Virus record (IMG/VR): IMGVR_UViG_3300029875_000034
Coordinates: 1 to 18,223 of that record
Source: a virus
Taxonomy: Duplodnaviria; Heunggongvirae; Uroviricota; Caudoviricetes
DNA length: 18,223 nt
Reading direction: 5' to 3' (one strand)
The position numbers and the translations under genes were made by a program. Under the pieces are notes generated by a model, which worked only from the letters and a program-made list of their open reading frames with translations, was not told where the DNA came from and did no database searches. Below, one piece after another: positions 439-3,526 of this stretch. Positions within the stretch are counted from its first letter, which is position 1; every line of letters starts with the position of its first letter.

Positions 439-654
439 ATGAAATCCATGGACAAAATTTCAACGGGCATTGCCTACGGCACCTCCGCAGGCAGTGCTGG
501 CTACTGGTTTTTACAGTGGCTTGATCAGGTCAGTCCGTCACAGTGGGCTGCGATTGGTGTACTGGGGAGTCTGGTTCTGGGCTTCCTGACTTATCTGACA
601 AATCTGTACTTCAAAATCAGAGAAGACAAGCGTAAGGCTGCACGGGGAGAGTAA
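439..654 (+). CDS. S: Class II pinholin, phage 21 S-type, with dual-start motif (Met1/Met4, antiholin/holin)
   Basis: 71 aa beginning MKSMDK; two hydrophobic helices ([19 protein letters not shown] and [18 protein letters not shown]) and a charged C-terminus ([13 protein letters not shown]). RBS GGAGGTGA at 427-434. Close to the S21 / DLP12 essD sequence as I recall it. Confidence 0.85.
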
Positions 655-658
655 TTCA

Positions 659-1009
659 ATGACTCAAAACTATGAACTGATTGTGAAAGGGATCCGCAAT
701 TTTGAGAATAAAGTTACGGTAACTTTAGCGTTACGGGACAAAAAACGCTTTGACGGCGAAATTTTTGACCTGGACATCTCGCTGGACCGTGTTGAAGGTG
801 CCGCGCTGGAGTTTTATGAGGCAGCAGCCAGAAGGAGCATCAGACAGGTCTTCCTGGATGTTGCTGCCGGGTTATGTGAAGGGGATGAGCAGTCGCCGGA
901 AAAGCGCCCCGTAATTTTAGAGGCGCAGAATGTGTGGATAACCTACAAAGGAAAGCTACCAGGAAGAATTACTGGTTCTCTGAAGACTCCTCCGGAATCA
1001 CAACCTTAA
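659..1009 (+). CDS. Hypothetical 116-aa protein inserted between holin and endolysin
   Basis: ORF with RBS GGAGAG 7 nt upstream of the ATG and 4 nt after the holin stop. No signal peptide or TM segment. It occupies the same position as ydfR-type (DUF1327) genes in some E. coli prophages, but I cannot confirm homology without a search. Confidence 0.55.
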   Translation: MTQNYELIVKGIRNFENKVTVTLALRDKKRFDGEIFDLDISLDRVEGAALEFYEAAARRSIRQVFLDVAAGLCEGDEQSPEKRPVILEAQNVWITYKGKLPGRITGSLKTPPESQP

Positions 1010-1072
1010 GTCACTGACCGGAACAGATAAACCTGTCCGTGGGCAGAAACCGATAAATCCTGATAAATATCC

Positions 1073-1606
1073 ATGAACGCAAAAATCAGATACGGCCTGT
1101 CGGCTGCCGTTCTGGCACTGATTGCCGTCGGTGCGCCCGCGCCTGATATTCTCGACCAGTTTCTGGATGAAAAAGAAGGTAACCACACAACGGCATACCG
1201 CGATGGTTCCGGCATCTGGACCATCTGTCGGGGTGCCACGATGGTGGATGGAAAACCCGTTTTTCCCGGTATGAAACTGTCGAAGGAAAAATGCGACCAG
1301 GTCAACGCCATTGAGCGTGATAAGGCGCTGGCATGGGTGGAGCGCAATATTAAAGTACCACTGACCGAACCACAAAAAGCGGGTATCGCGTCATTTTGTC
1401 CCTATAACATTGGCCCCGGTAAGTGTTTTCCATCGACGTTTTATAAGCGGCTGAATGCTGGTGATCGTAAGGGCGCATGCGAGGCGATTCGCTGGTGGAT
1501 AAAAGATGGTGGGCGCGATTGCCGCATACGTTCAAATAACTGCTATGGACAGGTTATTCGTCGTGACCAGGAAAGCGCATTAGCCTGTTGGGGAATAGAT
1601 CAGTGA
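1073..1606 (+). CDS. SAR endolysin (GH24 phage lysozyme with N-terminal signal-anchor-release domain)
   Basis: N-terminal Gly/Ala-rich weakly hydrophobic segment [16 protein letters not shown]; catalytic E-x8-D-x5-T triad in [16 protein letters not shown]; size 177 aa. The RBS is weak. Confidence 0.8.
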
Positions 1607-2070
1607 GCAGAGTCGCCGCGATTATTTATGCTCTGGTTATCTGCATCATCGTCTGCCTGTCGTGGGCGGTCAATCATTACCGTGATAACGCCATCACCTA
1701 CAAAGAACAGCGTGATAAAAAAGTCAGTGAGCTGAAGCAGCTGACCGCCACCATCGCTGACATGCAGCAGCGTCAGCGTGATGTTGCTGCGCTCGATGCA
1801 AAGTACTCGAGAGAATTAGCCAATGCGAAAGCTGAAAATGAAACTCTGCGCGCTGATGTTGCCGCTGGTCGTAAGCGCCTGCGGGTCAATGCCAGTTGCT
1901 CCGCAGCCGTGCGTGAAGCCACCGGACCCACCAGCGTGGATAATGCAACCAGCCCCAGACTGGCAGACACCGCTGAACGGGATTATTTCACCCTCAGAGA
2001 ACGGTTGATGACGATGCAGAAGCAACTGGAAGGGGCACAGCTATACATTCGTGAGCAATGTCTCAGATAA
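1603..2070 (+). CDS. Rz: Rz inner-membrane spanin (i-spanin)
   Basis: N-terminal [32 protein letters not shown] and a coiled-coil body, very close to lambda Rz as recalled. Likely start is GTG 1603 overlapping the endolysin stop (GTGA); the ORF track's TTG at 1588 is the alternative. Confidence 0.85.
1823..2008 (+). CDS. Rz1: Rz1 outer-membrane lipoprotein spanin (o-spanin), embedded in the +1 frame of Rz
   Basis: 61 aa with lipobox LVVSAC, proline-rich [32 protein letters not shown]; nearly the same as lambda Rz1 as recalled and fully embedded within Rz. Confidence 0.85.
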
Positions 2071-2497: not shown

Positions 2498-3037
2498 TTA
2501 GAAACTGCGTGGAGCTGTGGAAAGAATGGATGCCAGTTCTTCCTTCGATAAATCCCAGCTTCGATTTACAGCGTCAATTTTCTTAAACTCATCAAGCATT
2601 GCGTTATAGAGATGTTCTGTACGTGAATGAGTATTGGCAATGGGCTGTTTCTGTTCGGGGAAGCGATCAATTTTCTGATATGCCTCAATGATACTGAAGT
2701 AATCGCATTCATTATTACCGTCGAAACCTGGGAGCTGAATTGCCCCATCATGTATTTTTAGATGATGGTCACGGACTAATTCTTTTTGCTCGTCATCACT
2801 AAGTTTCCTGAAAGCATTGGAAAGTCCGCGATACATATTCAAGACAGCAGTAACAAAATCACGATCTTCTTTACTTGGTTCATCAACATCCAAATGTGAA
2901 TATTCGGCCTTCATAACCCAACCATTACCAGATGACACAGCATATTTAACAAGCTGTGGATCAATATCAGTTTCGATACCTAGGTGGATGGCAATGTCAC
3001 ATAACAAAATGGTATTGATTTTATCTTTAATATCCAT
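2498..3037 (-). CDS. YfbU-family (UPF0304)-like protein, accessory (moron) gene on the opposite strand
   Basis: 179 aa. Segments NMYRGL, LPGFDGNNECDYFSIIEAYQ, THSRTEHLYNAMLDEF and C-terminal LSKEELASILS line up with my recollection of E. coli YfbU ([58 protein letters not shown]). Local GC about 35-42% versus about 50-55% in flanking genes, by eye. RBS GAGGG upstream on the minus strand. Confidence 0.55.
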   Translation of the reverse strand: MDIKDKINTILLCDIAIHLGIETDIDPQLVKYAVSSGNGWVMKAEYSHLDVDEPSKEDRDFVTAVLNMYRGLSNAFRKLSDDEQKELVRDHHLKIHDGAIQLPGFDGNNECDYFSIIEAYQKIDRFPEQKQPIANTHSRTEHLYNAMLDEFKKIDAVNRSWDLSKEELASILSTAPRSF

Positions 3038-3175: not shown

Positions 3176-3526
3176 ATGCCAGCACTAATCCCACGAGCCT
3201 GCCGTAAACGTGGATGTGCAGGTACAACCACAGACAGTTCTGGTTACTGCGATAAACATCGTGGCGAAGGATGGGTACAGCATCAGCGCGGACTGAGTCG
3301 CCACCAGCGTGGCTATGGCTCGAAATGGGATGCCATACGTGCGCGCATACTGAAGCGTGATAATGATCTGTGTCAGAACTGCCTGCGCAATGGGAGAGCC
3401 GTTGAAGCCAGAACTGTGGACCACATCATTCCGAAAGCTCATGGTGGCTCGGATGCAGACAGTAACCTGCAGAGTCTGTGCTGGCCCTGCCATAAAGCAA
3501 AAACAGCGCGCGAACGCATCAATTGA
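3176..3526 (+). CDS. HNH endonuclease (terminase-associated, HK97-type packaging module)
   Basis: HNH motif DHIIPKAHGG...NLQSLCWPCHKAKT with flanking Cys pairs (CRKRGC, CQNC, CWPCH); positioned immediately upstream of the small terminase. Confidence 0.85.
   Translation: MPALIPRACRKRGCAGTTTDSSGYCDKHRGEGWVQHQRGLSRHQRGYGSKWDAIRARILKRDNDLCQNCLRNGRAVEARTVDHIIPKAHGGSDADSNLQSLCWPCHKAKTARERIN

Follow-up and report, generated by a model that had tools for sequence, protein, structure and literature searches.

The closest described relative of the gene analysed here is ydfR (b1555) of the Qin prophage of Escherichia coli K-12, which lies between a holin gene and an endolysin gene in the order essQ-ydfR-rrrQ. 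A fragment comprising the first 72 codons of K-12 ydfR was recovered by two-hybrid with RNase G as the bait, and gave a higher signal with RNase E constructs than with this paralogous bait (Gopel et al., RNA Biol 2026; PMC13232886). The full-length K-12 protein interacts with RNase E 1–597, and Strep-YdfR co-purifies RNase E 1–598 together with DNase-resistant nucleic acid, with the authors' reservation that a contaminant could have carried the RNA that co-purified with YdfR (PMC13232886). K-12 YdfR is a stable protein that binds a defined partner, and its overexpression does not slow growth and changes few transcripts (PMC13232886). Phage effectors of RNase E include T4 Srd, which binds and stimulates the catalytic N-terminal half of the enzyme, phiKZ Dip and T7 gp0.7 (PMC4980113). 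The literature on ydfR/DUF1327 and its cassette neighbours yielded nothing on function besides the RNase E paper.

A ydfR-family gene in a phage-21-type lysis cassette

The window, which is the whole stretch of phage DNA that was analysed (18,223 nt), carries a four-gene lysis cassette into which a further open reading frame (ORF) of 116 codons is set. The features are as follows.

439..654, + strand: phage-21-type class II holin gene (pinholin-type), 71 aa
644..651, + strand: Shine-Dalgarno sequence GGGGAGAG of the 116-aa ORF, sitting in the last codons of the holin gene
659..1009, + strand: ydfR-family gene (DUF1327), ATG start, 116 aa, predicted cytoplasmic product of pI 5.5
659..880, + strand: DUF1327 core, aa 1–74, with predicted strands 5–14, 18–27 and 34–43 and a predicted helix 50–74
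881..1009, + strand: variable C-terminal module, aa 75–116, EKRPVILEAQNVWITYKGKLPGRITGSLKTPPESQP, one of several alternative tails in the family
1010..1072, + strand: spacer of 63 nt upstream of the endolysin gene, lacking a Shine-Dalgarno sequence
1073..1606, + strand: endolysin gene (lysozyme family), 177 aa
1603..2070, + strand: Rz spanin gene
1823..2008, + strand: Rz1, embedded in Rz in another frame

The cassette has every element of the phage-21 type. The holin matches PF04971, 'Bacteriophage P21 holin S' (E 1.4e-35), and PHROG holin families, and begins with MKSM, so that Met1 and Met4 offer two possible starts. The endolysin matches the lysozyme family PF00959 (E 1.4e-24) and has a weakly hydrophobic N-terminus, as found in signal-anchor-release (SAR) endolysins, with a Kyte-Doolittle maximum of 1.87 at residue 9. 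The spanin pair is represented by Rz (PF03245, E 1.4e-49) and the embedded Rz1 (PF06085, E 1.4e-18). Both family matches and hydropathy thus agree with an earlier note on this DNA, which had described the neighbours of the ORF as a pinholin and a SAR endolysin.

Some further features flank the cassette. A terminator-like hairpin followed by a T run is found at 351–369, about 70 nt 5′ of the holin start, and is probably the tR′ terminator read through by Q. Two tRNA genes lie 5′ of the lysis genes, one at 1–66, which is cut by the window edge and is a tRNA-Thr in an identical phage record, and a tRNA-Gly(TCC) at 73–147; the identical record has a tRNA-Met further upstream, after gene Q. On the other side of the cassette, an 88-aa ORF (2226–2492, + strand) without a family match is located between Rz and an HNH endonuclease gene, and a 179-aa ORF with a YfbU domain (2498–3037, − strand; PF03887, E 1.4e-12) runs convergent to it, the two making up another accessory pair. 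The HNH endonuclease gene (3176–3526), which matches the HNH models of PADLOC weakly, is directly 5′ of the gene for the small terminase subunit.

The holin gene ends with a TAA at 652–654, and four bases (655–658) separate it from the ATG of the 116-aa ORF at 659. The ORF terminates at 1007–1009, and a gap of 63 nt precedes the endolysin ATG at 1073. These positions, together with the good ribosome-binding site (RBS), are exactly those of the earlier note. The G+C content of the ORF is 47.6%, compared with 50.5% for the holin gene (S), 51.9% for the endolysin gene (R) and 51.4% for the window. The protein reaches a maximum 19-residue Kyte-Doolittle mean of 0.69 (holin, 1.72; endolysin N-terminus, 1.87), and scanning with these 19-residue windows detected no hydrophobic or membrane segment and no segment resembling a signal peptide, in line with the soluble character that the earlier note had ascribed to it. 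Between positions 439 and 1072 no promoter-like or terminator-like site was found, which argues that the gene is expressed within the late transcript.

In pairwise comparisons of the window gene with six homologues, the dN/dS of the core ranges from 0.23 to 0.41; that of the tail module (aa 75–116) ranges from 0.15 to 0.51, at low dS. As judged from these ratios, and from the annotation of the same protein in hundreds of genomes, the ORF is a real gene under purifying selection. An ORF that is untranslated or unconserved at the protein level, which the earlier note had named as grounds for abandoning its proposal, is at odds with the constraint on the core.

The identity of the product is practically certain. 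It matches DUF1327 (PF07041) with an E-value of 7.5e-43 and a score of 145.1 bits (gathering cut-off 25) across residues 1–112, and the PHROG families of unknown function phrog_406 and phrog_2091; sequence searches of NCBIfam, PADLOC and the PDB returned no matches, and no homologue of a known lysis regulator appeared in any of these five resources. The search for DUF1327/YdfR-type proteins that the earlier note had proposed is therefore positive, and its description of the gene as unassigned is contradicted both by the Pfam match and by existing RefSeq and GenBank names. Positions 400–2100, which hold the whole cassette, match Escherichia phage vB_EcoS-689R5 at 100% identity; the ORF is called 'putative YdfR family protein' there, and ON470583 and many E. 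coli genomes list a protein of 100% identity as 'YdfR family protein'. The late region of vB_EcoS-689R5 is HK97/lambda-like, with Q, tRNAs, lysis genes, an HNH endonuclease, terminase, portal, protease, capsid and tail genes. DNA matching the ORF is present in 4,302 of the 5,426 complete E. coli genomes, at up to 8 places per genome. Annotations in thousands of genomes already cover the gene, the family name and the place in the cassette.

The window gene is closely comparable to K-12 Qin ydfR. The two belong to the same family, occupy the same slot, 4 nt after the holin stop in both cases, and are followed by endolysin genes of the same type, both of 177 codons. Across residues 1–74 the proteins are 81% identical. 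The tails, by contrast, differ: K-12 YdfR has 103 aa and ends in KLSEKVESYLQHQYSFKIENPANKHERPHHKYI, whereas the 116-aa window protein carries the EKRPVILEAQ...TPPESQP module, and the K-12 ydfR stop overlaps the endolysin start where the window has its 63-nt gap.

A conserved unit of about 72–74 aa, consisting of three strands and a helix, recurs throughout the family, and residues 1–74 of the window protein are the only part common to all members. Tyr53 and Glu54, at the start of the helix, are invariant in an alignment of 21 sequences that extends down to 24% identity. An AlphaFold2 model computed with the divergent family alignment gives the core a mean pLDDT of 85.5, with the fold confidently predicted. 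Residues 72–116 are modelled with low confidence, at a pLDDT below 50. Among Escherichia members, what follows the core is a mosaic, with totals of 103 aa (K-12), 104 aa (mEp460) and 114 or 116 aa (the window type), variants of 176 or 183 aa with a coiled-coil-like extension, a 268-aa form in Stx2 phage 86 and the bare 72-aa core in phage Evi. The functional unit would accordingly be the 72–74-aa core, and the C-terminal tail an exchangeable add-on. The family is very small, since an exhaustive profile search of 1.84 billion representative proteins retrieved only 87 clusters.

Two proteins of 170–176 aa, P0188 and P0192, contain tandem double DUF1327 cores. A seemingly stand-alone 72-aa core from E. 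coli (P0144) was rejected as a separate form, because it is the first half of a frameshifted gene of the 176-aa type, which has a different holin family upstream. The ydfR copy of L016 (3001–3517) is broken by a frameshift near codon 65 into ORFs of 72 and 107 aa, and several short YdfR entries in the databases are probably artefacts or pseudogenes of this kind.

The junction between the holin and endolysin genes

In phage-21-type cassettes S is normally followed directly by R, according to the earlier note. This describes about three quarters of the phage records: 438 deposited records encode a holin of this type and 101, or about a quarter, a YdfR homologue (tblastn). It does not describe the complete E. 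coli genomes, of which 2,136 of 5,426 were hit by a holin|ydfR junction probe and 900 by a probe for the 933W-type junction of holin and endolysin, both counts being megablast lower bounds, obtained with 201-nt probes at ≥80% coverage. In E. coli prophages, the ydfR-containing junction is at least as usual as the direct S-R arrangement.

Synteny provides the counterpart without the inserted gene. In 933W and Lambda_ev203, R comes directly after S with no gene between them. All four lysis genes of the window have counterparts of the same families in the same order in 933W, where R starts 4 nt after the S stop, in the position that ydfR occupies in the window. In 933W a different gene, ant, is inserted between R and Rz. 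When the junctions of the window, 933W and K-12 Qin are aligned, the S genes share a conserved 3′ end, GCGTAAGGCxGCxxGxGGAGAGTAA, and the ATG that follows at equal distance, with the same RBS element and 4-nt spacer, belongs to R in 933W and to ydfR in the window and Qin. The conserved S terminus and the equally spaced start codons imply that ydfR took over the ribosome-binding site embedded in the holin gene. On the proposed mechanism, the Q-dependent late transcript would include the gene, and its translation would start from the Shine-Dalgarno sequence within the holin 3′ end.

Where ydfR is inserted, the endolysin gene is not preceded by any recognisable Shine-Dalgarno sequence. The 15 nt preceding its ATG (1058–1072) are conserved in K-12 Qin, where they form the last ydfR codons. 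An RNA element in the 63-nt spacer (1010–1072) was considered and rejected, as the spacer shows no significant RNA structure (fold z-score −0.23) and the tRNAs are the sole Rfam matches.

The loss by the endolysin gene of the holin-embedded Shine-Dalgarno sequence, with no recognisable one of its own, is what would be expected if the inserted ORF had no function as a protein and were a decaying passenger, or a translated spacer that sets the ratio of holin to endolysin expression. The frameshifted copies, such as that of L016, and the many truncated or odd-length database entries point in the same direction. We nevertheless regard this reading as very improbable, since dN/dS stays at 0.23–0.41 across divergent copies, the core is kept down to 25–30% identity in other genera with Tyr53 and Glu54 invariant and a confidently predicted fold, and the K-12 protein is stable and has a defined binding partner (PMC13232886).

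Slots of the relatives and their convergent neighbours

Contigs of nine divergent family members were examined, eight of them encoding stand-alone proteins of 72–94 aa and the ninth the tandem-core protein P0188. Their locations are as follows.

Citrobacter P0190: after the tape measure gene
Serratia P0189: between the tail assembly chaperone and tape measure genes
Sodalis P0185: immediately 5′ of tail gene L
Metagenomic P0172: between L and K
P0167 and P0193: between M and L
P0180: before J
P0188 (L031:3501–4031), two tandem cores: 5′ of a PF16080 holin gene, not after it
P0171: contig too short to place

Seven of the informative distant homologues are thus in tail modules and one is upstream of a holin gene, with none in the holin|endolysin slot. 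A role of the distant homologues in the virion or in tail assembly was rejected because the slot differs from phage to phage. The lysis neighbours also vary in E. coli itself. In E. coli L016, the frameshifted ydfR copy follows a PF16080 holin, which belongs to a different holin family. In phiSTEC1575-Stx2k (L023:1281–3299), a phage-21-type holin gene and ydfR are followed by two convergent small ORFs and then by a second lysis set in which two holin genes are accompanied by an M15 peptidase in place of the lysozyme; this looks like a recombinant cassette that has kept the holin-ydfR pair. An obligatory pairing with one holin or one endolysin fails on the PF16080 holin, the M15 cassette, the tail modules and the absence of ydfR from 933W. 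The gene always lies on the late strand, in many slots and beside varied lysis genes, which argues for a mobile accessory gene and against a dedicated partner of one holin or endolysin. That the ydfR-family gene is an accessory gene and no part of the lysis machinery appears probable.

The same observations bear on a role in lysis timing, which the earlier note had offered as one option and for which no positive support emerged. As a lysis-timing regulator, YdfR would be a cytoplasmic factor acting on the synthesis, stability or triggering of the pinholin or of the membrane-tethered endolysin. In every Escherichia case inspected a holin gene immediately precedes ydfR and the two are translationally linked, with a spacer of 3–4 nt in the window, K-12 Qin, Stx2 phage 86, phiSTEC1575, mEp460, PhiR12 and Evi, as such a role would predict. 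In addition, the ydfR deletion of the Keio collection was a hit for envelope leakiness in a genome-wide screen, where it is an entry in a supplementary list without discussion in the main text (PMC3879167). This unvalidated phenotype could stem from polarity of the kanamycin cassette on rrrQ, the endolysin gene that follows. Evidence against a role in lysis timing is that neither a membrane segment nor a signal peptide is present in the protein, that overexpression of K-12 YdfR leaves growth unaffected, that many cassettes of this type do without the gene, that it also accompanies another holin family and a different endolysin type, and that its distant homologues on informative contigs lie outside the holin|endolysin slot. 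Membrane or periplasmic targeting, homology to a known regulator and obligatory co-occurrence with a holin or endolysin, by which an antiholin or regulator might be recognised, are all missing. A regulator of lysis timing is accordingly an unlikely identity for the protein.

Lambdoid phages have morons in comparable places: bor is next to the lysis genes, and lom and HK97 gene 15 belong to tail modules. A classic moron brings its own promoter and terminator, is expressed from the prophage and in many cases codes for an envelope protein. The ydfR family resembles them in interrupting gene pairs that are contiguous in related phages, and in occupying varied slots of the late operon. The window copy differs from classic morons in lacking a promoter and terminator of its own, in being co-oriented with and coupled to the late genes, and in encoding a cytoplasmic product; among its relatives, a hairpin often follows the DUF1327 gene. 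Of the suggestions in the earlier note, that of an inserted moron co-expressed at late times is favoured by the use of the holin RBS, the lack of a promoter and the varied slots, but the name does not apply in its strict sense, as the insertion between otherwise adjacent genes comes without its own promoter and terminator. The gene would best be described as a moron in the wide sense, a mobile gene inserted at the holin|endolysin junction that stands outside the holin-endolysin-spanin machinery.

In eight of the nine distant copies, DUF1327 is directly followed by a small ORF on the opposite strand, and a small convergent ORF is likewise found 3′ of the gene in Evi, PhiR12, Stx2 phage 86 and phiSTEC1575. 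A GC-rich hairpin often separates the stop codons of the two genes. Loci with such convergent partners are L026:1501–2040, L028:446–992, L029:3501–3986, L031:3501–4311, L003:4001–4553, L007:4001–4519 and L025:1501–2218. At least four clusters can be distinguished among the partner ORFs; sequence similarity between the clusters is not significant, and none of them matched a known function.

Partner cluster phrog_10490: Citrobacter and Serratia (E 7e-14)
Partner cluster phrog_2572: L016, PhiR12 and L020
Partner cluster of Evi and L028 (E 7e-43)
Partner cluster of L029 and L031 (E 1e-29)

Each cluster is represented in different slots, so DUF1327 and its partner seem to move as a unit, which suggests a mobile two-gene cassette. 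Given how varied the partners are, a specific functional pairing is uncertain.

No partner accompanies the gene in the window, K-12 Qin, mEp460 or the Sodalis locus. The window gene might be an orphaned half of a two-gene mobile cassette, in which DUF1327 normally works with the convergent ORF, for example as a late-expressed partner or antagonist of the opposite-strand protein, the window copy having lost its companion. The frequency of the arrangement (eight of nine distant copies and four E. coli phages, often with the hairpin between the stops) and the joint travel of partner clusters with DUF1327 from slot to slot, at the E-values given above, agree with this proposal. It is less easily reconciled with the mutual dissimilarity of the partner clusters and their want of a known function, or with the intact and constrained state of the partnerless genes in the window, K-12 Qin, mEp460 and Sodalis, and the association could also reflect a shared insertion hot spot. 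We consider an orphaned state of the window gene improbable.

RNase E and the possible activity of the window protein

The explanation that accommodates these results best, with a probability of roughly 0.55, is that the ORF encodes a small cytoplasmic accessory protein of the YdfR/DUF1327 family of lambdoid prophages, carried as a mobile insertion, with binding to RNase E or RNA as its most likely activity. The analysis shows family membership, the slot, co-transcription with the late genes, purifying selection and mobility between slots. By analogy with the K-12 orthologue, we infer that the window copy would share RNase E binding and RNA co-purification, and that this activity would matter during lytic growth.

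The existence of phage effectors of RNase E makes a role of this kind plausible for a late phage protein. Like T4 Srd, K-12 YdfR is a small phage protein that binds the N-terminal half of RNase E (PMC13232886, PMC4980113). RapZ is another binder of this half. The region of K-12 YdfR that binds RNase E corresponds to the conserved core (81% identical in the window protein), which makes RNase E or RNA binding the most likely activity of the window protein. In the proposed mechanism, YdfR-family proteins would bind the catalytic N-terminal half of RNase E, RNA, or both, and thereby alter the processing or decay of late RNA. That this binding is the physiological activity is a tentative proposal, transferred from the orthologue of K-12 Qin. 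Somewhat more speculative is the idea that the family might be the temperate-phage counterpart of T4 Srd and phiKZ Dip, reshaping RNA decay during lytic growth by means of a mobile gene that often comes with a partner and is present in about 80% of E. coli genomes.

The finding itself changes little. Its residual value lies in a testable lead to the activity of one of the commonest prophage genes of E. coli; if the RNase E lead is true, the family would represent a widespread route by which temperate phages influence host RNA decay. The movement of the family between late-operon slots, often with a convergent partner, supplies concrete constructs that can be tested. The other literature results for ydfR are a 3-fold streptomycin MIC hit from a screen of overexpressed genes and a slight change on a lambda-lysogen array.
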